Assembly (NCBI GenBank): GCA_030248215.1
Contig: JASANG010001546.1
Span: forward strand, 496,001 to 560,000
Origin: Enoplolaimus lenunculus
Lineage: Eukaryota
Direction of reading: 5' to 3'
Length of the DNA: 64,000 nt
The stretch's first letter is position 1. Each line of letters starts with the position of its first letter. Below the pieces are notes generated by a model. It searched no databases and was not told the origin of the DNA. It saw only the letters and a program-made list of their open reading frames with translations. Positions 9,134-46,281 of this stretch are shown here, piece after piece. The translations under genes and the position numbers were made by a program.

Positions 9134-9364
9134 TGTAAGCATGTGAGACATGAGTGTCCTGGTCCATATGCAATAAAATGCAATGCACATTGTGTTGTAC
9201 GGTCAACACATATAGTCGACGAAAAATGCAGTTGGAGAGGCGGACTACGTGGCGCAGTGGTAGAGTGCTCGCTTAAGGCTCCATAGGCTGAGAGTTCGAT
9301 CCGTGCGCTAGCCCGCTTTTCCAGCTGCTTAGTAAAAAGGTCTAATGTCCTTTAGTTCCCACCT
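9134..9364 (+). mobile_element. Solo, 3'-truncated LTR of tRNA-bearing TRIM family A
   Basis: Begins TGTAAGCATGTGAGACATG like the LTRs at 30446-31362 and aligns to them over ~230 bp. tRNA-like core at 9243-9314 (box A TGGCGCAGTGG, box B GAGTTCGATCC). Confidence 0.8.
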
Positions 9365-9593: not shown

Positions 9594-10466
9594 ATAATAT
9601 TGATACTGTAAAAAATGCACGTGATAGTTTCACAGAGCGTCTTATCAAAACTCTTATCGTTAATTTATTCCACTAGCTATGTTAATAAATTACAGAACAA
9701 CCCGAAACTGAACGTACAATAGTATAATTCTATCAACAGCGTTAAATCAATAACCACTTTGAAAGTACTTTATATAACATTGCTTATTGCACAATTTTTA
9801 AAATTTACGTAAGTGTAATAGCTTGAACTAAAAACTTTTAAAGAGTAAAAACCCAATATAACATTGGTATAAATATTAAACGAACCAGCTATTGAGTAAC
9901 ACTGTAAACTTGTTGTTTAAAACCATTTTATCTGCTCAAGAGGGGCCTTTCAACTTAACAAACCTTTTGTATTCTTAAGTCACGTTTTGCTTTAATATGA
10001 CGACATGTTAGCAAAGAAAAAGTAGGGCGGCAGAATTATATCCGGTAAACAATATTAGCTTAGATTTGCAACCAAAACCAAATTTTTAACCATGTGACAA
10101 AACTGCATATACCCAATCGATTTTATGTTTTAGATGGACACATCAGAACTACATTTACTTTGTTTAAGGTTCAAATAATTTAATTACACTGTTAGTAAGT
10201 CTTATTAAAAGTTTTATATTGCTGGCGAAAACGAAAGCGCTAATTGTACCTAATTAATAGTGAATAGTAGATGTTATTTGAGTTATTCGTGACTGCTTTG
10301 CCTTAAGTGCGAAGGTTGTAAATGGGAAATTGTTGTAAACCTTAAGTATATACCACTCAGAACGGTGCGTATTCCTGTAACACCGACACTTGGGAGCCCA
10401 CATTTAGAACGTTGGTTTCGGAAACATTGTGGTTGCTTTTTTAGTCGTCGAAATTATAATTGTAAT

Positions 10467-15945: not shown

Positions 15946-16027
15946 ATACTGGCTTGGCTGTGTTCGAGAAAACTGTAACTTACACAATAATTATTTGTCT
16001 TCATCTTATTTGCAAATTGTAAATTAA

Positions 16028-16290
16028 CCCCTTCTCACATTGAGTTGCCTATAGGTAACTTGGCGCAGTGTATATACGTTAAATAGTATATATCGCACCG
16101 TGTTTAACAATTGCAACACGTATACATAGAACCAAATCACCACAAGACGTGAGAGCCCCCTCGGGCTCGAGCATCAAGCTCCTATAGCTGAGTGGTGATG
16201 GTATACGCCTCCCACTCCAGTCACCGGAGTTCGAATCCTAGCATAAAAGTAGATCTCAGGGGAAATAGAAAATATTCATGTGAGAAAGGG
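16028..16290 (+). mobile_element. piggyBac-like TTAA MITE carrying a tRNA-like Pol III promoter, copy 1
   Basis: TTAA|CCCCTTCTCACAT...ATGTGAGAAAGGG|TTAA. Internal box A (TAGCTGAGTGG) and box B (GAGTTCGAATCC) at ~16178-16250. Confidence 0.85.
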
Positions 16291-19200
16291 TTAAACAAGT
16301 TAAAAGCATGATGTAAAAACGGATAGTAATAATAACAAACGGATAGTCGTCAAAATAGCCAAAACAGATTTTAGTAGAAATGTTGGCTTTCTGAAATTTT
16401 AAAGGATAAATGGTGGACGCATTGAAAATTAACTTTTGCAGGCGCTTCATTTTTATTTCAAACAATTGCAGCTCTTTTGAAAATGAAAGATCGAACGATT
16501 ATCAACAAAATATTTAAGGAAAATTCGGGTATATATGTCTATGTCAACGCAAATTGACCGGTTTTTGTCAGAGACATTCCGGTTACACCTTGATATAAAA
16601 TATGAAGTTCGTGCAACCGGAATTATAAAATACCGGAACCTTAGCCGAAAAGTAAAATGATATATACCGGAGCAGGAACCACAAAATAAAAATAATTGTT
16701 ACCGAAAGTTTCATTTTAACGTTATTCAATCGCTATTAATGGTGGTGAAAAAATACCAGATTTATTTGCATAACCGAATAAAAAACGGCATTTCCCAACC
16801 GGAATTCCGGTTGCACCTTGCCCTTGGCCCATAGTCTCAAATGTAAAGCAGTTATCATCAGTTAGTTCTTTCCGTTTTTACTATCCGTTGTCACCCCGCT
16901 CTCTGCCTGATGGCTATAAGTTTCATTACGTATTCTATTAAATCCACAACTATGTTCAAACGTATAAAACTTCAAATTTTACTGAAAAGAGAATTTCCCT
17001 GTTTTTGTGGCCTCGGCGTTTCTACATTATTTTAATCTATCAAGAATGCAGCAAATTGAAGTTTGTCTGCTTGAGTCTGTTGTATTTCTGAAAAACGAAT
17101 ATTTTTTTCTTGAAGCTGACAATGAATTCTACATTTAAGTACTTATTTTTCAAATGACAGAAAAAATAATAACTGTGGTGATAAAAATTAGCTACGGTTA
17201 AAATGGTTGAAGACAATAATCTGAGAAATATTTTGAAAAAATTTCTAAACTTTAGTCATTTATGAAGTTTTTTTACTTGCGAAACTTTTCGCTGAAAACC
17301 AAAGTGCAAACGCGGGTACAAAAATGGAGCCGGAGCAACATAAAAATTTTAGCGTAGCCGGAGGTGAAACAAAAATAGGTATATTCCGCAAGTCATTGGC
17401 ATACAAATCTCTGATCTCAAGTGATCATTGCATACAAATTGCAATATGTCATATGACATCAGTGGACATTTATGCGAGTATCATATGATATTCCAAAATT
17501 CTACCAAATATTACATTATACTGCAGGACAGTGTAATTTGTGTGCACTAATGAAATAAGTGTAATTTGTGTTCACTAATCAAATAGTAAAAGCTATCAGG
17601 GTTCATCCGTAGGTCTGTCTCCGGCTCCAGGCAGAAAATCAGTCTCCGGTTCCGGTAGAATTTTTGCCGGAGGTTCCGGCAATTTCGGTAGTCAAATTTT
17701 GCATAATTTGGCACAATTTATCTGTTTAGCGCGTTCAATATATATTTCGGCTATCATAGAATATTGCAGTCAGACTATAAAATTTTAAAGAAAAATTTGC
17801 GGATGCACCTAATTTTTTTAAAGCATTTGGATGAATTTTGTAATTTTTATTCAATTTCAAACAGTTGTAGCATATATAATATGTGTAAAATTCTAAGATA
17901 TACACGTGAAAATTTCCGATAACGTTCCACCCTATGGTGAATCTGATTGTCACATCAGGATAGCAGACAATTCAATTTTTGTATTTTATAGCGGATCAAC
18001 GTGCACACAAAATATTACCGCTATTGCATAGGAACAATTCGTGTTTCAGGTTGCCCCAAAGGGTGAACCCGCATATAACAGGGTGCAACCGTAGGGGAAA
18101 TATACCTGAGCCAGTTTGCATAGGGTGACAGGAAATTGGGTTGACAAATATCTGTAAGGTGCTGCTTTACATCTACTTAAAACGAAACGTGCTAGATTAT
18201 ACAACTATTTTATCGGAACCTCCAGAAAAAATCTATTGCACCTGGACGTCGTTTTCTGTTGAAACCAGACCTCCGGTTTTACTCGAGTAATGTGTGTAAG
18301 CAAAAAATTAGTTTAAAGATCACCGTAGTGCTATCCTGATCTATACATTGGACCAAAAATGACAAAAATGCTTGCGTACCTGCTGGAAAAGGCTAGTTTT
18401 TGATTTGCCAACAAACAACAGCCCAAAAATTAAAACAATAAAACTTTATTAAAAATAAAATAGCGACAAAGATTATTCTGCATAATTTCACTAATGTCCA
18501 TGCGTTTACTTAAATGTTACGTACGTATATTTCTTGCACTATCGTAAATGAAAATAACTCTGTCGTAACTGCTGAAATTTCTTGCAAAATATCCATACCC
18601 GGAACAGTTTGTTATCTCCTGTTACAGGAACGAGACTTCATTTTGCACTCTGAGACACATCGAGTACCAAATACCATCGGACGGCTGTCAACGCCTAAAA
18701 CTTACTGACCCTTATTTTCTTCAGGTTTCTGCTTTGAAATATTCGTATAGCAATAAAAGTCGAAACAACATCGCACAACTGTTCGATTAAATAAATCAGC
18801 TGTACTAATTAATTAAAGCATGTCAAATAATGGATAAATTTCGTGAAACTATCATATTAAAAACTTTTCATGCCACGTACCTACCACAGCTTTGTTAGGT
18901 AACTTTTCGTGCAACTGTTTAGCCACTAACCGCGCCACCAAATATAATAACACTTTTATCTGTGTAGTAAAGTTTACGATATAAAGGTATAAAAAACTGA
19001 TTACAGCATACGTATAAGTAAGTCTTGATTAGCTTGGCTTAACCTAATGCTAATTCGTCCAAATCCGTTGTGTTTCACAACTAGAAAGGCATTTCAAAAC
19101 GAAAATGTACGCAATTGTAAACATGGAGAGAATGTCTTTATATTTTTAAACATCCCGTTTCACTCAAACACTGCACCGTAATAATAATATACTGCGGAAT

Positions 19201-20369
19201 AAAAATCTCTGCTCTATAAATCGAATTAAGTTCGAAAAACCAAACGAAAACCTGACAAAAAAAGAAAACTAAAAAATCATTCAAAGAAATCTAAGAATGT
19301 AGAAAAATTCAGTTTACATGAATTGAATACACTTAACGCGGTATGAAGAATGTTGTACTTGCACCGGGCATATTTGTTACACACACGTAAAATACACATC
19401 ATTCGATACAAAGAATACAACATTACTAAATTAATATTCAAACGAGTAAGATTTAACGATTTGTATGTAATATTGCAAACTTAAATGCAAAATATTTAGG
19501 ATTTTATAAGACGCAACCGGATTTCAAAAAATACCGAAGCCAAATCCGCATATTCACGCGAACATTTTAACAAAAAGTAACAGCTTAACTACGCTAATTT
19601 TACCGTTACTTGCGATATAATTTATGTTTGTACCAAACTTTTAACCTCAACCGGATTTCTGTATATTGTTTAGTTGCGAAACATCGTCATTTTTTGGTCA
19701 TAAATAATGGTTCAAATAATAAGTTATGTCATAGCTTTAAGCGATAAATGTCCGACAATGTAGAATACCGTAGGCGAATGTCTATTTTCTTTGCCGCAAC
19801 CGAACATTCGAGTTTTGGCAATTGGCTATACAGCTTGACATAAATGACAAATTTTGTACAGTAACCACACAACAACCGTTGCGTACAAGCTTGCACTCAA
19901 TAACAACGATGACGACAGTGGCTTGCAGTCAACCTTAAAATTGCTAAAAACAGCATCGCGTATTGGTGTTGCATTTGAAAAAAATGTTCACAAAGCTCGA
20001 CGATAGCAGATATAAATAATTGAATGAAAAAAACATGACCGCACCTAAAACATAAATATACTACGTATATGTTTTCATGATTTAAGTAAAGATATACAAC
20101 GATGCCAGTTCGAGCATGTGTATTCTGCAAACAACTCATAACAGGTGCATACAGTTTATGATGCCAAAACTTTGTTAAACCCGATTAATTTAGGCTTGTA
20201 ATTTTTCAACGGTCCGCTCAACTCAATGCTGCGTCCGGCTTGAATGTTTGCGATCACGGATTGAAACCGTAAAATCGCAATCGTTCGCTAATGAAGAAAT
20301 ACCGTAGTCGAGAGCGTTAGTCGAAATGCGGCTCTGTATAGATTGCAAGCCGTCCGGTCCAACATTTAA

Positions 20370-20631
20370 CCCTTTCTCACATGAATATTTTCTATTTCCC
20401 CTGAGACCTACTCTTATGCTAGGATTCGAACTCCAGTGACTGGAGTGGGAGGCGTACACCGTCACCACTCAGCTATAGGAGCTTGACGCTCGAGCCCGAG
20501 GGGGCTCTCACGTTTTGTGATGATTTAGCACTATGTATCGTGTTGCAATTGTTAAACACGGTGCGATATATACTATTTAACGTATATACACTGCGCCGAG
20601 TTGCCTACAAGTAACTCAATGTGAGAAGGGG
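20370..20631 (-). mobile_element. piggyBac-like TTAA MITE with tRNA-like core, copy 2
   Basis: Near-identical inverted copy of 16028-16290, with TTAA at 20366-20369 and 20632-20635. Confidence 0.85.
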
Positions 20632-21832
20632 TTAAGGTCCCATCCGCGGTCCATAGTGAGAGGGACTGTGGACCGTTCAGTTTTTTGTGGTCCGCCCCAT
20701 ACCACTGCATACATATTAGTCATACCAGCATATGCTGCTTTGAGTTACATATACCAAACTACTTAAAGTAGTATACAGACATTTCGTAGTCAATCATGAA
20801 CAAAATGGTCTTGTTCAAGCAGTGCCCATGGTTCATACTAAGCTAAAATTTTTCGACTGGATGGGTCCAATAAAAAGCCTCAAATTATGCCATGCGGCAA
20901 ACTATTATCTACTGTAGCCGAAATCTTCAAATTTATACAATACTTATAATTATTTTGGCCTAATAATCAAAAATTAAGATCGCTTCCTAAAAAATTCAAC
21001 CGCTAGAAGTTTGTCACAATTTTGAGTATAGTGAATATGATATTTAACATACTAAAATTATAAAACTTGCAATCCAGAAACTACATACGTAAATTATGTT
21101 ATAACTTACGTACTGAGCAATGCATCACAATATTTCCGAATACGCCTCCCCTCTTAAGCAACATTATTACGAAATGTTGGCGTCAACCAGAACAGCGTTG
21201 CTATCGTAGAAATAATCAGGAGACAATACAATTGTATTTATTCGAATTGACAACACGGAAAATTGATTTTTAAGGAGCACAAAGCAAGAAACGGCAGCGA
21301 AGAAACTAATTCTGAATAAAAAACGTTTACAGTTTCCATTTAGAAACTCTTACTGCACTGCTATTGCCAATCTATATATTAAAGCTGGAACGCCCCACAT
21401 ACGTATATTGGGCAAAGCGTTACTTTTGGTTTACAATAAATTTCTTAAGAAATACACGTGATTGTTCGATGAAAAGAAAATTTGCAAAGAAATTTTTGTG
21501 CTTTCGCTAAGTTTTGCGCATTGCGCAAAGCTGGCCGACTAGTAAATACGTACTATAATTCAAGTTAAATGTCATCATATTATTACATGGTTAAACACAT
21601 TAATTAATATACAGGTATTCAAGCAAATTAAGACACTTCGGAAGCAATACATGAAGTAAACAATACTTTGAATACAAACGACAAGGCTTTGATAAGCAGA
21701 AACAATCACATAGGCACCAAAACAGGGTGTGTATAGTTGGAGAAAAAGATGCGGTGTTCATTATTCGGTCAAGGGGGGAGTTGGGGCGAGGCCCAATATT
21801 AGAAACAAATGTCGATCCAATTGGTGCTGACT

Positions 21833-27800: not shown

Positions 27801-30800
27801 TCGATTCATGAAAACTTGCCTGGTTGTGTTGTTTAGTAGGTATATTTAGCACAATACCTTGAATATTAAACGCCAAGGAATATGTACGTACATACGAACG
27901 TAAATAAGCTAAACGTCACATGTTCTGCGTATGTATAAAATGCTTATACAAAAAATAAGCATGAAAATAAATAAAACCCACACATCATAAGCATATGTTT
28001 GGTTCAATAGCTAGCATTCATGATGTTAAGCGTAACTGGATTAAAACGGAATCGGAACAGCAAATTGGTATTGTAATCGGAACTACAAACTTTGTTACTA
28101 TAAGGATAATTTGTGCCCACAATAATATAGCTATAATATTGATTTAGGTGTATGTTGCAGGGTGGCAACAAAGGTTCGGATTCGTATTCGGATTCGGCAA
28201 AAACTTGTAGTTCGGATTCGGATTCGGTTGTAAAAAAACCGAATCCGAAATCCTAATCCAACAGTGTTGTTCGGCAATATGTTATTACAGTTATAATCAA
28301 CAAAAAATTTGATATCTTGTTATATTAGTAAAAAAATTTTGTTTCAGGTCACAAATCTCAAAACTGAGGTCGGTCACGAAATTGAAACGTTTAAAAGTTA
28401 TGTGGCTGGCAATGCGTTGATATTCTGAAACAAATTATAGATATAACTGAAACTGGCAACGTGCAAGATTGGTGCCACCCTGGTCTGTCTGCTTGTAAAA
28501 ATCTTCAAAAACGTCAAATGAACAAACTGGTGATAATTTTTAGTTCTGTTAAGCTGAACTACAATTACTTGTTAATATTTTAAAACTAAACTGTAGTTTT
28601 GTGTGTTTAGATGTTGAAATGGACAGAAATTTTATGTATTATATCAGAACAAGAAGGATTAAACTGATTCCGATTCAGTGTGCAAAATTCGTCTATGTAT
28701 ATAGCGCTAATTCTGTATATAAATAAAAGCAGTGGAAGTGGCACTAATTCTTTCTGAGGTCTGGATTCGATTTAACATGGTATCAAGAGCGAGACGTCGT
28801 ACAAAAGCAAGCCAGTAGTATTTACACAAGATGAGCAACTAAGACTACCTTTCTCATCCCTGTAACCTGCTTAAATTTTCCGTGAATTAAATTACAAAAT
28901 TTACCTTAAACTTCATTTTACTGACCTGTTGACTAGAAGACGAATGATCACTGCTCGAACTTGTACGATGATTATATTTACTGCTGCTCGTGTCGTTGTT
29001 TTGCATAGTGACATGGGAATGCAATGATAATGGCTGATCTGCCAAATTGTTCAAATTTGACCGCTGCTGTAATGTTCCAATGTCCGGCTTTGCTGAGCAT
29101 GCTTTATCGGGCAACGGGGGCCGGGGACGATGTTTTTGATGTTGTTCGGATGGCAACACGGGTTTGTGCACGCTGGACTGAGCTTTTAAAGGACTGCCTG
29201 AGCCTGGCGAATTCGGGTACAACCCTGATGGTTTAATCGATTGATGTGGAGGTGCCGGTGCGTGATGTGATTTAGTTGGTGGGATACGCGGTGATGAACC
29301 CTGTTGTGGTTGTTGTTTATGACGGCTTTGACTAGGTACTGTTATAGTAGGCGGTGACGCAAATCCGCTGCCACTTCCAGGATTCATGGCTGTCAGTGAA
29401 CCAGATCGATCTTTTTTCTCGAACAATTTGAGCGAGTCCATCACGCTGGCACCTACGCCACCGGACCCAGCTACACAAATGTTATCAGACGAACCACCAG
29501 CATTATTACTGCGATCGTTTGTTGTAGATCCTCCTCCAATCGCAAACGCTGCGTTTCCGCCACGTAAACCTGAACCTACCCCGTATTTTGAGGGACCATT
29601 TGGCACACTGGACGATGAGTAATCGATATTTTGATGATCAGCATTGCTACCGATGTTAACAAGCGACGATGCCGAATTCGATGACTGTAGTAAGCGATCA
29701 GGCTTTTGAGCAAGCGGTGGTTTCGGTCCTAATCCAGCCAACTGAGCGTTAATACCTGTTACAGTTTCTCGTGCACCAGAGCCAATTGCGGCAGTATGAT
29801 TTGAGCGTCCAATCGTTGTCGCGTTACTGCCAGATACTGATGTTCCGTACCGATTTGTAGTAAACGATGGCTCAGATACTTTCCGCATATGATCAGGCGG
29901 TGACGGTGAATGTTTTGGACTTGACACGCCCTCTGAAGAAAAAAGTATGTGTATGTATATTAAAACTGAAAACAAATGGCCTTATTTCAGATTCAGGTGT
30001 TGCAAAGCGTAACCAGGCTTTTGGAGTGCTCTTTGCTCTAAAGCATACAATTGTGATAAGTTGGGTAGGCTAGGGTACGACAGTTTTTAGTTCTGAGTTC
30101 TCAACAGTTGACAATGAGGGACGCTCCCAGGAGGTTTCGAACTCGGTTGACAGATTATCAGTCCAGCGCGCTATCCACTGAGCCACGTCGCCTCACATTC
30201 GACTGCTGAGTTTTTCTGTTTTTATGTCTTATAAGAACCTCAACATTATACACATAACACACGTATCTTGGTTCTTCAATGTTTTACCGCTTCTGCATAT
30301 GAAGGCACTACATATGCATCAACGTTTTACCGATGTGCAGCATTAGCATTAGGTTTCATTTTGCCTCCATACATCCGCATGTCACAACAATCAGCGATTT
30401 GGGGCTTTTGTTGTGAAAGAAAGGACGTAAGAGTAATATGTACGTTGTCAGCCTACACTGGAACCAAGGCCATCTGACCTTTCTACCAAGCAGCTGGAAA
30501 AGCGGGCTAGAGCGGTGATCGAACTCTCAGCCTATGGATCCTTAAGCGAGCACTCTACCACTGCGCCACGTAGCCCGTCTCTCCAACTGCATTTTTCGTC
30601 GACTATATGTGTTGACTGTACAACACAATGTGCATTGCATTTATTGCATATGCACCAGGACAAACATGTCTCACATGCTTACATGCCCTTATTTTCAACA
30701 AGGTCGTTCCTTGACCGTCCATCCTATTTTCGACTGGATACCGTGTTCATAGCGCGACAATTTACCATTGCGTCCTCGGAGTAGCCCCATGTCAGCCTAG

Positions 30801-32099
30801 GTAGGAACCAAGGACATCAGACCTTTCTACCAAGCAGTTGGAAAAGTGGGCTAGAGCGGGGATCGAACTCGCAGCCTATGGATCCTTAAGCGAGCACTCT
30901 ACCACTGCGCCACGTAGTCCGCCTCTCCAACTGCATTTTTCGTCGACTATATGTGTTGACCGTACAACACAATGTGCATTGCATTATATTGCATATGCAC
31001 CAGGACAAGTATGTCTCACATACTTACATGCCCTTATTTTCAACAAGGTCGTCCCTTGACCGTCCATCCTATTTTCGACTGGATCCGTGTTCATAGCGCG
31101 GCAGTTTACCATTGCGCTCACGGCGTAGCCCCCATGTCAGTCTAGGTAGGAACCGGGACATCAGATCTTTCAACTAAAGCAGCTGGAAAAGCGGGGATCG
31201 AACTCTCAGCCTATGGATCCTTAAGCGAGCACTCTACCACTGCTCCACGTAGCCTGCCTCTACAACTGCATTTTTCGTCGACTATATGTGTTGACCGTAC
31301 AACACAATGTGCATTGCATTTATTGCATGTGCACTAGGACAAGCATGTCTCACATGCTTACAAGGAAAGTCGCAGCTTTTATATAAGTACCTGTTCGTTT
31401 CTTGATTGCCGCACTCAGCTGCGACTGTAAGTCGTTTGAGCAAGGAGTTGCAACGCTACAGCTGGTATTACGTGGAGTTAAAGCGGAAGGCGATGCATTT
31501 GACGAGTTTCCTGCACGTCCAGCGTTTCCTATAACAGCGTACAGCACAGATGTTTAATTAAGTATTTATATAAATGGCAACTTTTCGAGCTGTTGTCAGA
31601 TATTCATTGCTGAAAGGCTCGACATAACTTTTTTCGCAGTGACTTTTGTTCAGAATAGAAGTAAGAATAGTAAGAAACACAGCTGATATTAAAACACCTT
31701 TTCAGCAACTGCCAGAGCCTGATGATGAAGTGTCCATCTTCGGATTTAGTATTTTTATATCCGGTCGCAACCTGTTGTTTGCAATTGAAAACAACAAAAT
31801 AGTTAAACTTAATTCCCTGATGCATTTTTAAGTTCCTAACGGTTTGTGTGATCAGAAATATACTAATATCCAGACAAAAAACACAAAATCACACCTTTAG
31901 AATCAATGAAAGGTCCGCTGCGATCATTTGTTATCGTTTTCTTCAGTTTTGTACCTTTATGAATGTCAGATAATAACGCAGCTCTGTTTGTGCCACCGCC
32001 TGATATTCCTGACTTTGCTTTTCCAGCAAGTGAAGGCGGCGGTGGTGGTGGACCAGGAGCGCCCGGAGGGGGTATCGGAGCAGGTGGTGGTGGTGGCAT
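21833..32099 (-). CDS. WIPF: WASP-interacting protein (WIP/verprolin family)
   Basis: In-phase exons 32099-31895, 31528-31391, 29932-28926, 24362-23945, 22722-22612, 21978-21833. N-terminal polyproline and WH2 domain (RAALLSDIHKGTKLKKTITNDRSGP), Pro-rich middle, and C-terminal WASP-binding motif FASRFRFVDIWDLPPPEPF. Confidence 0.9.
26857..27125. mobile_element. MITE with long imperfect TIRs in TA context
   Basis: ATATGTCGCAGGCCAAT ... ATTGGCCTACGACATAT. A related partial copy lies at ~25995-26245. Confidence 0.6.
28158..28482. mobile_element. hAT-like MITE (CAGGGTGGCA ends) nested in an older MITE
   Basis: CAGGGTGGCAAC...GGTGCCACCCTG. Same family as 44585-44957, in the opposite orientation. 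Confidence 0.65.
30052..30386 (-). mobile_element. Solo LTR of tRNA-bearing TRIM family B, copy 1
   Basis: TGTGA...TCACA inverted termini with a perfect 5-bp TSD ACAAT (30047-30051, 30387-30391). Minus-strand tRNA-like core at 30192-~30119 (box A TGGCTCAGTGG, loop CTGATAA, box B GAGTTCGAAAC). Confidence 0.85.
30446..31362 (-). mobile_element. Tandem-array TRIM family A: LTR-I-LTR-I-LTR with a tRNA-like sequence in each LTR
   Basis: LTRs at 31362-31135, 31028-30790 and 30683-30446 (sense TGTAAG...CTGACA). The 106-bp internals start with PBS-like TGGGG(G)CTAC and end with purine-rich GAAAATAAGGGCA. No TSD is visible. Confidence 0.85.
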
Positions 32100-32919
32100 G
32101 CTAATGTAGCACGTTGACTATTGCAAGTACAACCAAGATTTCAAGTTTCTGTTAAATTCAGGGAATGCGGTGACTGCTTAAAATTAAGTAGCTAAGAATC
32201 CAGATTACTAGTAAATGTTGCAAATGAGCACGATAGAGCTGCTACTGTAAAACATAATACAATTAAGCCAAACAAAACATGTACTAGGTTAATTAAAGCT
32301 GCCTAGACATTAACACAAACCGGTATGCTGATCCATACCACATTTCTGTTGGATCTACTCTTATGTAAGTTTGTATATCAAAAACACAGACCGCACCATG
32401 GCCTAGAAAACGGACAGAGCATATAGAAAATTAGTTGTGCTGAGCTTCGGGAAGAAGCACCTAAAAGAACTATGAAATCTCGAGATATTGGTAACAAAAT
32501 TTGCATTGTAAAGTTTGATTTTAACCCTAAAAAAGTTTACACTCGGCAGCCGGTGGGGGCATGAATACCCCCATTTCCTCAGGATCCGCGCTTGTTAAGA
32601 TACGTCTCTGCAACCCAACCTTTGTGTCAAATGAATTGTATGTTTAAAATTTTAGGCATTTAGGAATGGAAATTATCAGGTGAGTTGACCTAAAAATACT
32701 TGAACCTTGCCAGTTATAGTTTTCCTTTTTGCGTTCCGCAATTGCAAAATTTTATCAGTATGAAATGTTATCATTAACTGGTGATGAGTGCTATACACAT
32801 TTGAAAACATATGCCTGGATCTCAAATAAAAAAATTTTGAAAAATGTAGCAAGCGTCATTTTTAGTCAGTGGATCCAAATTTACAAATTATAAATACATA
32901 GTATATATTTATGTGATAT

Positions 32920-33550
32920 TGGATATTCTCCCGTATGGTCTCCTTATTTGCTGAGAGACATTGATCAGGTCGAGAAAATTCAACGGTTTTTTACTAGACG
33001 CCTAGTCGGTAAATTCAAGTTGCCAGCAATGAATTATCTGGCCAGACTACAGCACTTTGGTCTTCAGTCCTTAGAACAACGTAGATTGATACAGGACATG
33101 GTATTGTTTTATAAAATATATCACGGTGATTGTGGTTTAGATCGTAATGATTTTGTTGTATCTACAACTGAGAACCGTACGAGAGGTCATGATTCCCGAG
33201 TTGTCATCAATCATTGTCACACGGATTCTCTTAAAAATAGCTTTTTCCATCGTGTTAAACCTATTTGGAATGATTTGCCGCAACATGTTAATTCAGTTCC
33301 TCTTATCCATGCTATGAAAGATAAATCATTTTGCAATACATTAAAACGGGTAGATTTCTCTAGGTATTTAAATGCGATCGTAACCTTGATTAAGATAGGT
33401 GAAAATTACGGTTTACCCCCTTTTCATCTGATTATTGTTTGTTACGGAATTGAGTTTCCTTTATTTCATACCTTTATAATGCTTTAAATTTTTCCCTGTT
33501 CAAATAATCATTTCCGCAATAAACTTTTAGTTTGTTTGTTTGTTTGTTTG
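32920..33550 (+). mobile_element. 5'-truncated CR1/L2-group LINE 3' end
   Basis: ORF2 C-terminus SPVWSPYLLRDIDQVEKIQRFFTR..YLARL..LQSLEQRRL..DM..FYKI..RTRGH..FF.RV..WNDLP, followed by AATAAA and a (TTTG)n tail at ~33530-33550. Confidence 0.85.
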
Positions 33551-33754: not shown

Positions 33755-34067
33755 TGTGATAAGTTGGGTAGGTTAGGATACGACGGTTTTTAGTTCTGAG
33801 TTCTCAGCAGCTGAAAATGAGGGACGCTCCCAGGAGGTTTCGAATTCGGTCGACAAATTATCAGTCCAACGCACTATCCACTGAGCCACGCCGCCTCACA
33901 ATCAACAGCTGAGTTTTTATGCCTTACGAGAACCTCAACACATGCATATGGTTCTTCAATGTTTTTATCGCTTCTGCATATGAAGGCATTACATATGCAT
34001 TAACGTTTTACCGATGTGCCTCATTAGCATGAGGTTTCATTTTGCCTCCATGCATCTTCATGTGACA
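33755..34067 (-). mobile_element. Solo LTR of tRNA-bearing TRIM family B, copy 2
   Basis: Aligns end to end with 30052-30386. TG...CA ends, flanks ACAGG/ACAGT (4/5 TSD match), tRNA-like core at 33895-~33822. Confidence 0.8.
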
Positions 34068-34180
34068 ACAGTTGGTTTCCGTAGACTAGACTCATGGTGC
34101 CTGTCGGTATATGTGCACGTAAGTGTATGTAAAGCAAATGTTGCCATGCCTGTGCACATATACCGGTATAATGTTGCAAC

Positions 34181-34252
34181 GACCGCGTAGTGTAGTGGTA
34201 TCATGCTTGGCTCGAGAGCAAGAGGGCCGAGGTTCGATTCCCGGCGTGGTCA
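34181..34252 (+). pseudogene. 72-nt tRNA-like sequence in LTR1 (anticodon position CGA, short variable loop)
   Basis: GACCGCG TA GTGT AGTGGTA TCAT G CTTGG CTCGAGA GCAAG AGGGC CGAGG TTCGATT CCCGG CGTGGTC A. The acceptor stem pairs fully; the T and anticodon stems have mismatches. Confidence 0.75.
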
Positions 34253-34485
34253 TTAACTTTGGCAAAACTTCAAACAGGGGTCGTGCAGACCGTATAGTAC
34301 CAACATGGAGGTCCCACCGAGACGGGCACTGCAAACAGCAAGCCCATGAAATCGGGTAGTTGGATTCACGGTCCGGGACGACCGCCTGTAAAAAAGAGGG
34401 ATGTCGGTATATGTGCACGTAAGTGTATGTAAAGCAAATGTTGCCATGCCTGTGCACATATACCGGTATAAGAAGTTGTTGCAAC

Positions 34486-34557
34486 GACCGCGTGGTGTAG
34501 TGGTTGCATGCTTGGCTCGAGCGCAAGAGGGCCGAGGTTCGATTCCCGGCGTGGTCA
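34486..34557 (+). pseudogene. 72-nt tRNA-like sequence in LTR2
   Basis: Second copy of 34181-34252 with a fully paired D stem (GTGT/GCAT). Confidence 0.75.
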
Positions 34558-35700
34558 TTAACTCTGGGCAGAACTTCAAACAGGGGTCGTCTAGACCGTA
34601 TAGTACCAACAGTGCCAAATTAATATACGCTATAAGCAAAACTTATTTTTTTATTATGACAATGGCTCACGTTTGGCGTTTGTCTGTTTTTTCCAAATTT
34701 AAGTATTTACTCAAGTCGGTGACTGAAGTAAATTAAGTATACCTTAAGTGAACAATTAAGAAAGATTGCAGAAACCCAGCCAAGTAGCTGTAAAATCGGG
34801 TTACAGGTGGTCGTCATCTCTATAGTCACCTGTTACTGATTGGTTTTCAATCAAGCGAACAGTAGCAGCGTCAAATGTCGAAACCTGCATTGAAACGAAG
34901 CAGATCAAGTACGTAATGACCGCCGTTACAATGCGATGGTGTTGGTTAACTTACCAATTTTGTTAATCATATGACATTAGGTTTATCCTATCCACAACGT
35001 CTGTCAAGTTGCATTTGCAGTTATCTTTTGAAAGCTGATGCGTAAACTTTTTCAACCCAATATTTCTTTCTGTAAGTCATTTTACCGCTCAAGACACGTA
35101 CACGTTAACAAAAACAAACTTACGAAACATCGCTTTTAAAGAAATATATTCCTCACTATGTCATGTTTTTTCGGTACGTAATAAATACGTCAGTGAGAGT
35201 GATGTTATCATAAATTGAAGTAATTTTGAAAACAGCAACCTTGGTGCAAAATTTAGCCAAGATTGGGCGTTTAAGGCAAATTTTGCCGGTTTAAACACGA
35301 AACGAATGTTGTATTATTTAGCTGAAAATCTTGTTTTGCCGTATAAACAATTTAATGATTGCTACATGCAAATGGAATGAAGGCAAAGGAGACAATATTT
35401 TCCACCTTGAAGATAATGAAATGTTTCGATTCCCGCATATTTTATAATTCTGTGTTGATATCTGGCTTTTCATAATGCGTACATTTTTCATGGAATTGTT
35501 CTGTGTACAAAGTTCACATAGCCTCTGAGTTATTTATATATACGTACCTTTTCAGCACTGCCACATATTTATTCTGCCTTATTTTTTACATTAATTAAAT
35601 CTATTAATTAAATAGGTTCTGAATTGCAATTATATTTGGATTTATTGCTTGCGATCATATATAGTAACTGCTGCAATTTTTGCTAAGCAAATTTTCGGAG

Positions 35701-36416: not shown

Positions 36417-36806
36417 CAGGGTGCAACCGGAATTCCGGTTCCGGCATTTTTTCACCTTCCGGTTCCGGTAAATTTTTACCGGATTTAAAAATTCCGGTAT
36501 TATAATTTGGCCGTTTTCTTAACTTTGCTAATTTAATAAGAATCTCTTTTGAAAGCCACTTGTACTCCGAATATAAGCCATTGATGGTGGATTTCACTTC
36601 AGTCGATGATGAAAATCTAAAATACAACAAATAAAATAAATATATACCTATATTCGACTAAGGTTATTTCACAAATAATAGAGCAAGAAATAAGATTAAA
36701 ATGAAATTTTTGATGATATGCATTTTTCACTTTCCGGTTCCGGTTCCGGTAAAATTTTCAAATTCCGGTTCCGGTTCCGGTAAATTGTAATTCCGGTTGC
36801 ACCCTG
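36417..36806. mobile_element. hAT-like MITE, 8-bp TSD TTGATGAC
   Basis: CAGGGTGCAACCGGAATT...AATTCCGGTTGCACCCTG with a perfect TSD at 36409-36416 and 36807-36814. Confidence 0.9.
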
Positions 36807-38927
36807 TTGATGACCAAAAATTGACCGAGACCGAGACGTTATGACCGGTGTCGGTCTCAGTGTCGCTTTTGAACTGAGAATACACACGCCTGGCCAGTAG
36901 TCTAGGATTCAGGAAATGTGTTGCTTTGGTTTCAATCAGAATTCCTGCAAGAATTCAATTCCTGTTCTGTTCCTGCATTTAACGACACAGGAACCAATAT
37001 TTTTTACTGTTTTGTAGCAAACTACTCATAATCATTTATATACTGGAAATTTTTTCTTTGAAAATTTGTTATTTCGAAATGATTATGTTTCCATTAGTTC
37101 AGTTTTGTTAAACGATTTCTGCTGCGTTTTCGCAAAGTTGGATGATGAAATCGCTGAAAATTCGCTTAAGCAATTTTTTTATGTTTCATAGTTATGCAAT
37201 AATTATCAGCAGATGTTCTGAAAAACGCAAAAATAACTATGAAAAACTCACGAAAAAAGCTTAAAAATAATTTATTTTGAAAAGCTTTTTTTCTGTGATG
37301 ACCAAAAATGGAGCAAGACCGCAAAAAAGTCGACGAGCTAATTTTATTTTAAATTATAGTCAATTAACAGTAAGTACGTAGATGGTGCAATATATTTGCA
37401 ATTCCTGTTCCTGTTCCGGTATATTCCTGTTTTTGCTTCCTGTCAAATGTGGTTCGAGTTAAAAGCCGGACGTATATATAATATATTTGAGTTCGAAATT
37501 TTTGAAAAATGGAAAATGGCTTACATAAATTTTGCTCTGATGTTGCTATTTTCACGCTAGTGCTCTATACAATGTTGCAAGTAGCACTTATAAGCTATAT
37601 ACGTACATGTACGTTTGTATATAATACGTGTTAAATCGGCTTATGTGTTCTGCTGGCTAAGATAGCAGCCAGGACTGCCATTTTACAAAGGTCGTTGGTA
37701 ATTATTAATATGAATTATGATTGATTTTGATTTTCAGGCCCATATGTTAAGTTGCAGTGTTATCATTAATTTTACGTACTACGTATATTAAGGTACTTGT
37801 AGCGAACTACCGATTTGGATCTCTTGTTTTGTTATATATTTGTTTAATTGGTTTGCATTATTCTTTTGTTATTAAGATAGGCTGTAGCATAGCGTCTTTT
37901 ATTAACGGATGCATCCATGTTATACTACGTATTCATTTCAGCCTGTGCCACGTTGCAAAGCGGAAATGGATTATATCGGAATCGGAACGGCAAATTTATA
38001 TCGGAATTGTTAGCAGAACTACAATTTGTGTGGCTATACGGATAATTTGTAATAACAAATATAATATTGATTTATGGTGCGCGTTGACTAACAGAAATTT
38101 CAAAAACGTCGCATAAACAAATTCGAGATGATTTTTGGTGCTATAAAATACATCGCAATGAATCTTACAGAAAAAAGATGCAGAAGTTTTATGCAACATA
38201 TCAAAGGAAGTAGGATTAAAAATTAAATTTCGAAATTCCAATTTCGATTGACTGAGTAATAGAAATCGAAACTCGTGTTGAATCGGAATTCTAATCGCAA
38301 TCAAAATTTCGGTTGCACCACGTTTTCAGCGATAAATATCTGGTAACTGATCCAGTACATGGAATCCGATCGCACTCAGTAATTCTAATGTTGACCGTGG
38401 TGATGTGAATTTGGAATCTTGAACATTAATTCAACTTGTATTGTCTTCAATCGGCTGTACATAAACGTTATTGTAACACTTCGATAATTAATATATACGC
38501 AAATGTTTCGTTTGTATATGGTTTATATTAAGTAAATTGCATAGGTTGTCATTTGCCCAAATCCAATGAATATGTAGGTGCACTCGTACCCTTACGATGA
38601 ATGTAGTTCTGTTTACATTGTTTTTTGAGTAGTTTTTTATTATTATCACCTTGGTTGTTGTTGCTACAAATAATCCACACAGGTTCTCGAGTCTTGCATT
38701 GTGTATAATTTTATGTATTGTGCCGGTTTTGTTTGTTGTATGTTGAAACCGAATCCATTATTCGAGTTTGGAGCATCTTTTATTGGTCGTTACGTACCTG
38801 GAGCGGCTTCTTGACTAATGTTTGAAGATTGTGTTATATGGAATGTTTTGTTTTGTTTTTTATTTTATTTTATTACGGTTTTTGTTGTTGTTTTTTGTGA
38901 TGGTGTTTAGTTTTAGTGTGTGTACTG

Positions 38928-39369
38928 CAGGGTGCAACCGGAAGTCTGATTTTGATTAGAATTCCGATTCAAAACGAGTTCCTATTCCGATTAGAATATC
39001 GAGTCAAAGCGAATTCCGATTCCGATCGCACAATCAGCTCGAATTGGAATTTTGAAATTTTAATTTTAATCTTACTTTTTTGTGGTACGTTGCATAAAAA
39101 TTCTGTATTGTTTATCTCGTTCCATGAGTTGATTTATCAATAATATATTTTAGTTTAGCTTTGCAGGACCAAAAATCGCCAATCTGTTCATGCGACGTTG
39201 TTAGACAATTGTTGCCACCCAACAGATACTCTAAATCAGCGTCATATTTTTCAATGCAAATTATACGTATAGGCACAAAATTTCCTAGTTCCGATTTCGA
39301 TTACAATTCCGGTATAAATTTGCTGTTCCGATTCCGATTTGCTACAATCCAGTTCCGCTTTGCACTCTG
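38928..39369. mobile_element. hAT-like MITE (CAGGGTGCAA family)
   Basis: CAGGGTGCAAC...TTTGCACTCTG with flanks GTGTACTG/GTGTACGT. Related partial copies at ~5340-5618, ~37945-38320 and ~39590-39925. Confidence 0.75.
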
Positions 39370-40406
39370 GTGTACGTACTGTGTGCTTAATATGGAATCC
39401 TAGGTGTTGAAACAAGATTGATTTTCTAGGGCGGGCGTAGCCAACATTTTGCAAACGGGGGTGTCGTCTTGTAAAAATTTTGAAAAGTTTCTTGTACTGC
39501 CACCTGAAAAATTCCTAAGACTGATGGGATGGGCGTAGTGTCGTGCGCAGTTCGATCCATCAGTTTCAGACTAAAAGAATTTTGTCGGAATGCGGATTGA
39601 TTAAACGTAACTTTTGAAACAATCAGGAATTGAAACTACAAATTTTACGACTATACGGATAATTTAGATAAACAAGTTAATATTGATTATGGGTGTCTGT
39701 TGGCTGGCAACAATTCTCAAAAACATCGCATTTGGCTCTGTAAAACTAAACTACAATCAATTATTGATAGTTAAGTCATCGAAAACAATTTAATACATAA
39801 ATCATATAGATTTCTTAAACAACATAACAACAAGTTGGCCTAAAATTAAAATATTGAAATTCCGATTGATTGTGCAATCGAAATCGGGATTTAATTTGGA
39901 ATCGGAATTCCGATTGCATTCTGGTGCACGGTCTTTATTTTGCTTACCTGGCAGTGTAAGTTGGCTTAACTTAGTATTGATAGTTATTTTGTTTGCTTTC
40001 GCTCAGGAAGGTAAATATATCACACTGATTATTTGGAAGAATTAGGTCGCTTTTGAATAGAGTGTATATATTTGATAATTCGAAATAAAAATAAACTAAA
40101 TATATGATATATAATCTATATTATGTAAGTATATATAGCGCTTATATATCGTGAAAATGTTTGTGTGTTGCTAAATTGTATTCATGATTGTTGACAGAAA
40201 GTGTAGTTTCACCGAATGCCTGAGCTTTGAACTGAAACGTAATTGATCTTTCCGCCTGTGTTATGACAACTTAAAAGAGGTGACAATGAAGTAGTGTGAG
40301 AGGCAACAACACTGTTTGACGTTGAAATGAACCGTTATTTATTATTTATTTAGTATATTTCGTAAGTTGAATATCTGAGTGTATACGGAACTCCAGTTCC
40401 GGTTAG

Positions 40407-40877
40407 CAGGGTGCAAAGCGGAACTGATTTATACCGCAATCGCAATCGGAACAGCAAATTTGTATCGGAATTGGAACAGCAATTTATATGGGAATCGGAA
40501 CAGCAAATTTATACCGGAATCGGAATCGGAACAGCAAATTTGTTCCGGAATCGGAACTACAAATTTTGTAACCATACGGCTAATTTGTTTTAACAAGTAT
40601 AATATTGATTCAGAGTGTCTGTTCGCTGGCAATAATTCTCAAAAACGTCACATGAACAAATTGTCAATCGTTTCTTGGCCCTGTAAAGCTAAACTACAAT
40701 CAATTATTGATAAGCTAACTTATCGAAAACAATTTAATAGATAAATGATGCAGAATTTTTATACAACATATCATAATAACAAGTAAGCCTAAAATTAAAA
40801 TGTGGAAATTCCGATTCCGGTTGATTGTGCAATCGGAATCGGAATTTGTTTTGAATCGGAATTCCAATTGCACCCTA
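40407..40877. mobile_element. hAT-like MITE, 8-bp TSD CCGGTTAG
   Basis: CAGGGTGCAA...TTGCACCCTA with a perfect TSD at 40399-40406 and 40878-40885, and internal GGAATC repeats. Confidence 0.85.
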
Positions 40878-44584: not shown

Positions 44585-44957
44585 CAGGGTGGCATCGAAT
44601 CCACGATTTGACCGAATCCGAATCCAAATCCAGTGCTAATTTGCCGAATCCGAATCCTGCATGTTGCAAATTTCAGATATATCTATAATTTGTTTCAGAA
44701 TATCAACGCAATGCCAGCCGTATAACTTTTAATACGTTAATATATTTCGTCCCGATGTCAGTTCTGTGATTTCTCACCTGAAATAAAAAATATTGATTTT
44801 TTATAGCAAGGTATTTAAAAATTTTATTGCTTAAAAATTAAAAACATTGCCGAACTTTGTTAGATTCGGCTTTTGGATTCGGCTTTTCCACAACCGGATC
44901 CGAATCCGAGCCTCAAATTTTTGTCCAATCCGAATCCGAACCCTTGTTGCCACCCTG
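44585..44957. mobile_element. hAT-like MITE, 8-bp TSD TATCAGAG, inserted in the terminus of another MITE (to ~45392)
   Basis: CAGGGTGGCA...TGCCACCCTG with a perfect TSD at 44577-44584 and 44958-44965. Confidence 0.85.
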
Positions 44958-45945
44958 TATCAGAGTGCAACCGGAATTCGGCTTCCGGCATTTTTTGACT
45001 TCGGTTCCGGTTGCGGTGAATTTTTACTGGAAAAGAAAGTTGCGGTATTAAATTTTGGTCGGTGGAAATTAAAAGATATATATTTTACTAAAAAATGACG
45101 ATAAAAATTAATAAGATTTCATTTGTATACGTAGTATATAAACTTTGGCCATCGCCGAAAATAAACCGTCGAAGGTAGATTTCGCTTCCGTGGCTTGTCA
45201 AAATTTAGAATACAGCAGATAAAGTGAATATCTATCTCCAACTAAGGGTTATTTCACCAATAATATTGCAAAAAAAAAGAAAATTGAAATAAATTTTTTG
45301 GTGGCATGTACGCATTTTCAATTTTCCAGTTCCGTTTCCGGTAATTTTTTCAAATTCCGGTTCCGACAAATTGTAATTCTGATTGCGCCCTGAATTATAT
45401 ATATTATACGTTACGTACTATTGTACGTTAAAATATATATTATGTGTACGTATTAAATAATTAATTAAAAAGCAGTTTGCACGAATTGATTGCAATGGAT
45501 GGATGAATGGATTAGCTACAGTATTTTATAAAGTTGTTTGGTGTTTTTAAGGATTTGTCAGTGTTGAAAGTTTTTGGTTTTTATATGTTTTTAGTGTAAG
45601 TACGTAGCTTATTATTTTAAATTGCAATGAGTTGAAAAATAGCGTTTCGCAGTTATTAATTGAACACAGCGTAGTTGAAACCAGAGTTGAATGTCGACGT
45701 TAATGAACCGGACGGATTTCAGTTGAGAAAAATTCGTTTAAAAGCTACTTATATACGTATTTGATTGTGTTTAGCCGTTTTTTTCAATCTGACCGCAAGC
45801 CGTGATTTGTGTTTGTAATAGACAGGGTATAGCCGAAAATGCCATGGTGAATATATGAGAAATTTTCGAGCTTTTATTGAACCAAACACGCAGGGATTTG
45901 GATAATGATTTTAAATTAACTACGATTTTTGTACATGAAACACGT

Positions 45946-46077: not shown

Positions 46078-46281
46078 GTGCGCATGTAAAGATCAGGGGC
46101 GGAGCGTTTTTCTGTGAGACTAGAAAAGAGTAAGCTTAAGCTGTAGACTAATTTTTTTGCTTGGCTTAGGCTTAGGAATATGCTCATTCTTACGCTTAGG
46201 CTTAGGCTTAGGCTTACGCTTAGACGTAGGCTTAAGAATATGCTTATAATACTGGTCCGCCCCTGTTCTTTACATTGGCCC
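46078..46281. mobile_element. GGGCC-ended MITE with 6-bp TSD and TTAGGC arrays, copy 2
   Basis: ATGTAAAGATCAGGGGCGGA / TCCGCCCCTGTTCTTTACATTGGCCC inverted ends, with TSD GAGTAT at 46072-46077 and 46282-46287. Confidence 0.75.

Follow-up and report, generated by a model that had tools for sequence, protein, structure and literature searches.

What kind of element occupies the second intron of a predicted actin-binding protein gene in Enoplolaimus lenunculus, and does an apparently compensated change in one of its hairpins betray selection on RNA structure? Both questions are raised by a tandem array at positions 30446–31362 (minus strand) of the 64,000 nt of contig JASANG010001546.1 analysed herein (the window). 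As judged from sequence, the array would be a tandem form of a Helenus-type TRIM with a tRNA-derived promoter, and the change within its 5′ hairpin (H1) a product of neutral decay, a reading to which we assign a probability of about 0.78.

Read along the minus strand, the array begins with LTR1 (31135–31362, 228 nt), followed by internal 1 (31029–31134, 106 nt), LTR2 (30790–31028, 239 nt), internal 2 (30684–30789, 106 nt) and LTR3 (30446–30683, 238 nt), the last of which has an atypical U5 end. LTRs and internals thus alternate with an LTR at both ends (L3I2), and TRF describes the stretch 30446–31362 as 2.7 copies of a 344 nt period (90 % matches, score 1490), in keeping with the three LTRs, two internals and period of approximately 345 bp reported in the first-pass annotation. 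Its statement that the array starts and ends on LTR termini, and not at random positions within the unit, also holds (TGT..ACA at both ends), as does the lack of a target site duplication (TSD), with the flanks TACGT/AGGAA agreeing at 0/5 letters as a 5 bp duplication and 2/4 as a 4 bp duplication. This L3I2 form, bounded by LTR termini, bears out the likeness drawn there to Cassandra and other tandem-array TRIMs (TA-TRIMs). A two-LTR unit of this repeat, family A, measures approximately 583 bp, below the 1 kb limit for TRIMs, and has direct terminal repeats with TG..CA ends. The primer-binding site (PBS; 31121–31134 in internal 1, with a variant in internal 2) begins with TGG at the LTR junction and matches the tRNA-Pro 3′ pattern in its first 8/8 letters, where the reference is the 3′ end printed in Fig. 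S2 of PMC10886601 rather than a host tRNA. Purine tracts lie at 31029–31041 and 30684–30696, the family A tract being 11 nt long with one T inside, and situated 2 nt from the LTR. Family A has no apparent coding capacity: none detectable by Pfam is expected of an internal of 106 nt, and the frames in its LTRs are short and full of stops. No reverse transcriptase or integrase domain was found in the 125 frames scanned, all outside the array (of 195 in the window with at least 66 aa). An assembly artefact is an unlikely source of the array because its copies have diverged from one another, with 91.6–93.3 % identity among the LTRs and 93.3 % between the internals; this is an argument from copy divergence alone, the array being spanned by no single contig.

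The array resides in predicted intron 2 (29933–31390, minus strand, 1458 nt, GT..AG) of a proline-rich, WIP-like animal gene for an actin-binding protein, the exons of which (32099–31895, 31528–31391 and from 29932, minus strand) give one open frame of 457 aa over three exons and a WH2 domain (PF02205, E-value 2.2 × 10−11). These intron and exon calls are predictions from sequence. The array begins at intron nucleotide 29 in the orientation of this minus-strand gene, in agreement with the 28 bp distance from the exon 2 donor that was noted previously.

The most telling feature of family A, a putative tRNA-derived Pol III promoter cassette, is absent from the first-pass annotation. In LTR2 a tRNA-like domain is found at 30848–30919 (minus strand), with an A box at 30902–30912 and a B box at 30861–30870, and its equivalent in LTR3 lies at 30504–30575 (minus strand); that of LTR1 is truncated by a 10 nt deletion that takes out the 3′ acceptor strand. 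Alignment of family A to the tRNA model RF00005 of Rfam is full-length, with 22.2 bits (E-value 0.084), which falls short of the gathering score (29), and the match is gone in an Rfam search of the whole window. The boxes themselves, TGGCGCAGTGG and GAGTTCGATC, are each one letter off the published Helenus motif, reading TGGCG in box A and AGTTC in box B, where most Helenus elements have TRGCY (..YGG) and GGTTC, respectively, according to the available text of PMC10886601. Among the four family A copies box A is changed in one, whilst the 10-mer of box B is changed in none. The intact cloverleaf of a functional tRNA gene is lacking, with many non-standard pairs, and ARAGORN makes no tRNA call in family A. 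Sequence derived from 5S rRNA, as is characteristic of Cassandra and Ajax, gave no Rfam match at E-values up to 5 and up to 3. A tRNA-derived sequence within the LTR, which is how Kojima defines Helenus, is present in family A, although the Rfam match is weak. Because each LTR contains a stretch that resembles a tRNA and has both boxes, family A is, on its sequence, a Helenus/TRIMp3-type TRIM in the common L3I2 tandem form, and the decayed tRNA copy of each array LTR likely serves as a promoter.

Further copies and sibling families surround the array. A fourth family A LTR lies at 9134–9364 (plus strand), with its 3′ end truncated and two H1 pairs broken; this copy was not used in the first-pass annotation. 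Family B is represented by solo LTRs at 30052–30386 (minus strand; tRNA-like domain, 5 bp TSD with 5/5 letters, 59 bp from the array) and at 33755–34067 (minus strand; 5 bp TSD, 4/5), and family C by a full-length TRIM at 34102–34611 (plus strand) with two LTRs, a 96 nt internal and a 5 bp TSD (5/5). Homology between families A and B spans the boxes (local score 46–50, against a maximum of 34–36 in 300 shuffles), which are common to both families whilst the anticodon arm has diverged. In family C the tRNA-like domain is recognized in both LTRs (Rfam, 50.7 and 45.3 bits), and both ARAGORN calls of tRNA-Ser in the window are in fact these LTRs, demonstrating how LTRs that bear tRNA sequence yield false tRNA gene calls. 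A degenerate TTAGGC run in the window hints at a nematode, and searches with septin exon sequence gave matches of 56–64 % and 70–80 %, of which those with a name belong to a cnidarian and to arthropods.

Thousands of contigs from the DNA runs X1, X2 and X3, amongst which the sample of the window itself may be included, fall on A and B repeats. Across the body of LTR3 the summed depth reaches 1 × 10^5 to 5 × 10^5 in X1 and X2, against 35–49 on unique flanks, a figure that is not a copy number; the ratio of internal to LTR depth was therefore dropped as a gauge of the share of the family that is arrayed. Across the family, loose ends accumulate at the LTR terminus 30683 (72, 157 and 49 contigs), in support of boundaries that sit on LTR termini. 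Joints from 30683 to 30052, seen in 3–4 contigs, could be junctions of A with B or misplaced ends of similar LTRs. The 59 bp spacer between the family B LTR and the array has zero depth in X1 and X2, which is a gap and no proof, and a reading of it as a polymorphism was not adopted for this reason. A 25 nt family A pattern had no matches in metagenome and viral contigs.

With regard to known systems, Helenus elements are TRIMs with tRNA-derived LTR sequence, amongst which LTR-11_DR forms tandem arrays (Kojima 2024, PMC10886601, as for all Helenus comparisons here, which extend to the available text of that paper). Shared features include a unit of less than 1 kb, tRNA-like LTR sequence in sense orientation, a PBS and a polypurine tract, the presence of several families in one genome, the occurrence of solo LTRs and, at times, of tandem arrays, false tRNA calls (here in family C) and a tRNA-Pro PBS, which is known from bivalves. 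No sequence appears to be shared, as two family A motifs of 11–12 nt had no occurrences in the Helenus supplement. Published animal Helenus lineages with a value in Table S1 all have a TSD of 4 bp, with which the 5 bp duplications of families B and C (5/5, 4/5 and 5/5) disagree; the helper ascribed to those animal lineages is a Gypsy element. In published Helenus, moreover, no complementarity was found between LTR tRNA and PBS, whereas the first 7 letters of the family A domain equal letters 5–11 of its PBS, as a tRNA-Pro primer would carry. Pol III transcription is unvalidated for the published elements, and this is the only relevant paper on TRIMp3 among the matches listed. Ajax, another animal TRIMp3, has a 5 bp TSD as in families B and C, but differs in its 5S-type promoter and is described from two nemerteans (PMC10886601). 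Amongst plant elements, maize TA-TRIMs have the L3I2 form in 63 of 93 cases (Gao et al. 2016, PMC4717578), and a perfect TSD accompanies only 10 of 28 LTR tandems in rice (PMC11899658). The available text of these two plant studies describes TRIMs enriched in introns and LTR-bounded arrays of three LTRs and two internals as seen here, although the maize examples shown retain their TSD and a tRNA promoter is not described. Cassandra resembles family A in its LTR Pol III promoter, tandem arrays, strong RNA folding and read-through of internal LTRs, but differs in its 5S rRNA sequence and in being restricted to plants, as far as the available accounts go (PMC7215508, PMC10853983).

For the preferred reading, a tandem Helenus-type TRIM, the following course can be proposed. 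Transcription by Pol III would begin at the tRNA-like domain of a 5′ LTR or a short way before it, pass the single T4 run and continue through the internal and the next LTR. Minus-strand synthesis would be primed by a host tRNA-Pro and plus-strand synthesis by the purine tract, with reverse transcriptase and integrase presumably borrowed from a helper element. A 5 bp TSD, such as that of families B and C, suggests a BEL/Pao or Copia helper. For Copia, this length is stated in the available text of the Helenus paper (PMC10886601), whilst no target-site data for BEL/Pao were found in the literature search. The array would have arisen afterwards through LTR recombination between copies of the same subfamily, with loss of the TSD, and neutral decay of approximately 3 % per site after integration would have left one double change among many broken pairs. 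Alternatively, family A may be an ordinary Pol II TRIM in which the likeness to a tRNA, whether a remnant or a coincidence, plays no part as a promoter. The sub-threshold Rfam score, the broken anticodon and T stems, and AATAAA within the U3 of two LTRs would all suit such an element; yet a tRNA-like domain occupies a similar place in three separate LTR families of the window, it is the boxes that are conserved between A and B whereas the anticodon arm has diverged, and a T4 run lies 3′ of the domain, an arrangement that visual inspection also suggests for many of the published Helenus consensuses. On this evidence a Pol II origin appears quite improbable. The sole T4 run on the sense strand of the A unit (30498–30501) compares with 0.8 expected, and depletion of such runs was rejected as Pol III evidence for being too weak.

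The hairpin change is a separate matter. H1 lies within U3 at 31007–31025 of LTR2 (minus strand), with equivalents at 31341–31359 and 30662–30680, and its arms form a perfect 8 bp inverted repeat with 3 nt between them. The letters reported previously, including one double compensatory change in LTR2 and one G–U wobble, are correct on the minus strand, but the claim built upon them, that the RNA hairpin is under selection, is not supported, as there is one double change only, this is equalled by 120 of 500 shuffles, and the stem is the more variable part. When 45 pairs are followed through four copies (177 cells), the changes amount to 1 double, 2 pairs kept and 9 broken, and the simulated chance of at least one double change over these pairs is 0.07–0.22. 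Substitutions affect 5 of 72 stem cells against 2 of 164 in unpaired U3 (p=0.029). The letter that gives the G–U pair is rare, with the Watson–Crick letter at 30664 making up approximately 97 % of depth in X1 and X2 and 91 % in X3. This assessment is drawn from the four window copies and, for the contigs of the family, from the best-supported 40 of 145 variant places. On these counts the seemingly compensated change is likely due to chance; the hairpins themselves would be a feature already present in the family founder, and differences among genomic copies are uninformative on selection. A p53-type reading of H1 was rejected by eye, as its CATG cores are 9 letters apart, and not the 10 expected of that motif.

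One could still regard H1 as a selected RNA element, for example a packaging signal, or one for the priming of the plus strand, immediately 3′ of the purine tract, with LTR2 representing a compensated subfamily variant. In all three array LTRs the hairpin is more stable than shuffled sequence (z −2.8 to −3.5), a double change becomes less probable (0.014–0.048) if H1 alone is counted, U3 of family A has three hairpins in a row with U3 hairpins in B and C as well, and loose ends at 30610/30619 suggest that in one subfamily the place of H3 is taken by another stretch able to form a hairpin. Selection is nonetheless unlikely, as this is one event chosen post hoc from 45 pairs, the LTR at 9134 with its two broken H1 pairs has a z of −0.83, the stem varies more than unpaired U3, and neither partner site (30665 and 30677) is in the best 40 of the 145 variant places. 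In addition, integrated copies experience no selection for RNA function unless they are re-copied. A mutational origin in one step, via a template switch within the short inverted repeat (quasi-palindrome correction), would fit both the near-adjacent perfect arms and the greater variability of the stem, and quasi-palindrome mutations have been ascribed to such switches (PMC3820800, available text). There is one event to judge from, however, and both substitutions belong to the class that is most frequent among these copies, transitions (10–13 of 16–27 differences per pair), such that two independent hits suffice and a switch is as doubtful as selection.

How the array was assembled is less clear. 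Recombination between different insertions, as the first-pass annotation proposed, remains plausible given the missing TSD, the 7–8 % divergence of the LTRs and the two PBS variants, whilst two observations speak against a simple version of it, namely that all three LTRs share a rare letter and that the middle one is no clean 5′/3′ chimera. That letter, at 30613, is lacking from 96–98 % of family depth, and LTR1 and LTR3 agree against LTR2 at alignment sites 43 and 111. These characters, together with the atypical U5 end of LTR3, would favour a single insertion of concatenated cDNA, or the growth of a resident copy through unequal exchange or recombination with cDNA, followed in either case by loss of the TSD when one end underwent a minor deletion or a conversion; for Cassandra, concatenated transcripts and template switching have been proposed. 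Conversely, the divergence within the array is hardly below the 10–11 % that separates it from the unlinked fourth copy, which has the rare letter too, the PBS variants of internals 1 and 2 differ, and no remnant of a TSD is present. Origin by insertion or growth is a possibility with less than even odds, and variants in the array copies give no order of array-forming events.

A better structural lead than the 5′ hairpin is a predicted leader–trailer helix around the tRNA-like domain. In LTR3 it comprises 19 pairs (30490–30590, minus strand; 12 leader–trailer and 7 acceptor pairs) and contains the T4 run, and an equivalent is predicted in LTR2 (30834–30934, minus strand). On the sense strand the helix is predicted in six of the eight LTRs, namely those of families A and B and not C. 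Its core, including a U–G pair, is kept between A and B, whilst adjoining pairs differ in sequence. When whole LTRs are folded, the sense strand is not consistently the more stable, as LTR2 has a z of −3.78 for antisense against −2.66 for sense, and LTR1 a z of about −1 on both strands. Such a helix may protect the RNA against the enzymes that process tRNAs, and neither it nor the question of escape from pre-tRNA processing is met in the available text of the Helenus account (PMC10886601). A bolder proposal is that the promoter was captured from the primer tRNA, through template switching to a tRNA packaged with the element, and was afterwards fixed within the helix. The tRNA shape would thereby be concealed from RNase P and RNase Z and the U4 terminator masked, allowing the full-length genomic RNA to survive. 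The shared letters of the family A domain and its PBS are in line with this, as is the complementarity between the last 8 letters of the family C domain and the family B PBS; however, family C has no helix and the B and C domains mismatch their own PBS, rendering this scenario tentative and rather unlikely.

Were primer capture true, it would, along with the 5 bp TSDs of families B and C, imply a separate animal origin of TRIMp3 elements with a non-canonical helper. More generally, the H1 example warns against taking a lone change that looks compensatory as evidence for selection when the transposon copies compared are decaying, whilst the helix, if functional, would explain how the RNA of a retroelement uses a tRNA promoter and yet escapes cutting as a pre-tRNA. 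With this locus, a class described in 2024 would gain an invertebrate lineage in which at least three families of putative tRNA-promoter TRIMs occur side by side.

The family A array, a tandem TRIM with three LTRs and a pair of internals at 30446–31362 on the minus strand, returns a period of 344 and 2.7 copies in TRF and resolves into three long and two short blocks with a repeat finder, bearing out the three-LTR, two-internal arrangement of period ~345 described in the first-pass annotation. LTR1 (31135–31362), internal 1 (31029–31134), LTR2 (30790–31028), internal 2 (30684–30789) and LTR3 (30446–30683) are all minus-strand. Every LTR carries TGT..ACA ends, confirming that the array starts and finishes on LTR termini; the primer binding site (PBS) begins directly at the LTR/internal junction, with 2 nt between the purine tract and the LTR that follows. 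A target-site duplication (TSD), also recorded earlier as missing, is indeed absent, with 0/5, 2/4 and 0/6 flank letters matching in 5-, 4- and 6-bp comparisons. Identities of 91.6–93.3 % among the LTRs and 93.3 % between the internals argue against an assembly duplication.

Contigs of three DNA sequencing runs (X1, X2 and X3; at most two samples of one study, possibly the window's own sample) were placed on 29950–30795, yielding 8940, 6957 and 1770 records, with loose contig ends piling up at the LTR terminus 30683 (72, 157 and 49 contigs). Family A is thus large. The letter at the equivalents of 30613 is common to all four family A LTRs of the window, including the fourth copy at 9134–9364 (+), and is held by 2–4 % of family depth; one rare subfamily is therefore over-represented locally. 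Loose ends at 30610–30619 in 40–68 contigs mark a subfamily in which a different stretch, self-complementary by eye, replaces hairpin H3.

With regard to the formation of the array, the literature consulted proposes both that neighbouring LTRs recombine and that templates are switched. The same form, L3I2, is given as the commonest tandem TRIM in maize (63/93; Gao et al. 2016, PMC4717578), and for rice LTR tandems a TSD is noted as kept in 10/28, missing TSDs being usual. Recombination of separate copies, as suggested initially, is favoured on sequence grounds because the TSD is absent, divergence is 7–8 % and two PBS variants are present; against this, LTR2 is not a clean chimera, as two shared variant sites join LTR1 with LTR3 and one joins LTR2 with LTR3. 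The 30613 letter, lacking in 96–98 % of family depth, is borne by each of the three LTRs as well as by the 9134 copy, so the partners would have come from one rare subfamily.

A tRNA-like segment of 72 nt lies in each family A LTR, oriented in sense, a feature missing from the first account. It harbours TGGCGCAGTGG as box A and GAGTTCGATC as box B, with the only sense-strand T4 run of the unit following the boxes. Aligned to the Rfam tRNA model over its whole length, the domain scores 22.2 bits (E 0.084), short of the gathering score of 29; it gave no match in the Rfam search of the whole window and no ARAGORN call. LTRs of the same design occur in families B and C. Family B comprises two solo LTRs (30052–30386 and 33755–34067, both minus; 87 % identical) with 5-bp TSDs (5/5 and 4/5) and a domain homologous to that of A, the local score across the boxes being 46–50 vs a maximum of 34–36 in 300 shuffles. 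Family C is an intact TRIM (34102–34611, plus) with LTRs 96 % identical, a 5-bp TSD (5/5) and a PBS that we take to be tRNA-Gln-like; its LTRs score 50.7 and 45.3 bits against Rfam tRNA and account for both 'tRNA genes' of the window, called by ARAGORN as tRNA-Ser(CGA). The tRNA-like segment places family A, in tandem form, in Helenus, the name given to TRIMs with tRNA-derived LTR sequence within TRIMp3 in the sections consulted of Kojima 2024 (PMC10886601), which also mention that LTR-11_DR of zebrafish occurs in tandem arrays. The six animal phyla given there for Helenus do not include nematodes, and no nematode TRIM is described among the titles and abstract openings listed by a literature search. 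The TSDs also differ, being 4 bp in every animal Helenus with a value in Table S1 of that paper and 5 bp in families B and C.

Beyond the domain itself, the 20 nt preceding it pair with the 20 nt following it. Duplex energies, with the number of 2000 shuffles reaching them in brackets, are −16.7 (1), −21.3 (0), −18.6 (1) and −23.6 (0) kcal/mol in family A and −14.6 (6) and −16.6 (0) kcal/mol in B, whilst the helix was not found in the C LTRs, at −4.0 (1286) and −9.6 (159) kcal/mol; it is therefore present in six of eight LTRs and two of three families. The value of −14.6 kcal/mol is reached by 0.8 % of 2652 GC-matched window pairs. For the two domains of which both strands were folded, sense is preferred over antisense (z −3.86 vs −2.94 for A LTR3; −4.01 vs +0.07 for B2), a preference that is not constant in whole-LTR folding. 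Two G–U pairs are unchanged in all four A copies and a third in three of them. The core, GCAGTTG/CAGCTGC, recurs in B with one or two letter differences per arm per copy, and the adjoining pairs differ in sequence between A and B. Because the two families are related, this represents a single origin retained in both lineages; among the A copies, the 19-pair helix has five broken cells and zero double changes. It is nonetheless a stronger structural lead than H1, the 5′ U3 hairpin described in the first-pass annotation.

H1 is a true inverted repeat, folding more stably than its shuffles in the three array LTRs (z −3.47, −2.95 and −2.78). The claim that it is under selection is not supported. 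Across the 45-pair structure from the LTR3 fold, four copies give 177 pair cells, containing one double change, two single changes that keep pairing and nine broken pairs; the covariation score is reached by 120/500 shuffles. Under simulated independent decay of 3–5 % per site, the probability of at least one double change anywhere is 0.07–0.22. Restricting the simulation to H1 lowers this to 0.014–0.048, a figure on which selection may have acted, but the pair was picked post hoc, making the former the fair figure. The 9134 copy, moreover, has two H1 pairs broken (z −0.83), and variability is higher in the stem than across unpaired U3 (5/72 vs 2/164 cells, Fisher p=0.029, the double change itself being two of the five). 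The G–U letter of LTR3 is a family minority, as the share of depth with the Watson–Crick letter at 30664 is 97 % in X1 and X2 and 91 % in X3, and neither partner site of the double change is among the best-supported 40 of 145 variant places in family contigs. A further, non-selective route to the double change is a one-step template switch, a mutation source noted for inverted repeats (PMC3820800). Of the earlier interpretation, then, the observations and the tandem TRIM stand, and selection on the hairpin is not supported.

The array lies within a predicted host gene of three exons and a single open frame (457 aa), with a WH2 motif (E 2.2e-11) downstream of a proline-rich start, a domain order that fits WIP, the name first given. 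Within the predicted second intron, 1458 nt long, the array begins at nucleotide 29, in agreement with the 28 bp to the exon-2 donor stated before, and families A and B fill ~1250 nt of that intron. It contributes donor-like sites at 31361, 31027 and 30682, acceptor-like sites at 31183 and 30494, and AATAAA at 31324 and 30645. The LTR 5′ end supplies GTAAG (31361, 31027), made a perfect GTAAGT in LTR2 by a change at hairpin position 7, and the T4 region supplies the acceptor-like TTTTCCAG (31183). If used, the nearest donor-like site or a candidate 155-nt cryptic exon would frameshift the host gene, the latter also introducing a stop.

Close to the 5′ end of each B copy lies a further tRNA-LTR element, at 59 and 34 bp (spacers 30387–30445 and 34068–34101), a proximity of ~5e-6 under uniform placement, computed post hoc. 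Ty1 and Ty3 target the vicinity of Pol III-bound DNA; the proximity here may reflect such targeting, or simply shared intronic hot spots. Elsewhere, a 270-bp element with terminal inverted repeats beginning TTAA (16024–16295, 20366–20634 and 60448–60717), presumably piggyBac-like, has A/B-box-like motifs by eye in its interior and no Rfam match. A 197-aa open frame at 32894–33487 lacks a Pfam match and resembles, by eye, the C-terminal portion of a CR1/L2-type LINE. The GCTTAG unit of a degenerate run (46159–46234) is TTAGGC, the telomere repeat of nematodes, in rotated form; it hints that the host, probably an invertebrate animal, may be a nematode. Thirteen 69-bp units of 97 % identity (63033–63937) have an open frame running through them. 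Short GAATCG or TTCCGG units abound in further dispersed repeat families of ~300–400 bp (5266–5618, 37954–40872, 48131–48481; 28158–28470, 36417–36806, 44653–45392). Other genes encode a septin-7-like protein (50411–57793, plus), a Ras-family GTPase (10293–12280, plus) and an EGF-repeat protein (5907–7471, minus).

The match between domain and own PBS is confined to family A, one family of three, being absent in B and C. One cross-match is seen by eye, the last 8 letters of the C domain (34245–34252) being complementary to those after TGG in the apparent B PBS; it ends after 11 letters, and that PBS derives from loose ends at 30052 with low consensus agreement (0.4). In family A, the domain of LTR1 and of LTR3 opens with seven letters equal to PBS letters 5–11, with one change in LTR2 and LTR4 (the 9134 copy), and the internal 1 PBS agrees with the tRNA-Pro 3′ end in Fig S2 of PMC10886601 over its first 8 letters and most of those following. 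Whilst the sections consulted of that paper report no relation between LTR tRNA and PBS in Helenus, family A has one, and such identity is the pattern that would be expected if the domain derived from the priming tRNA species. The flanking helix would imply a transcript spanning 15 nt upstream of the domain and continuing beyond T4, and, as RNase P is inhibited in cleaving pre-tRNA whose leader and trailer pair extensively (PMC9705548, citing Lee 1997), it is reasonable to suppose that it may shield the element RNA. Jointly, family A would have captured its promoter from its primer tRNA and protected the resulting RNA with the leader–trailer helix, a tentative reading to which we assign a probability of about 0.22.
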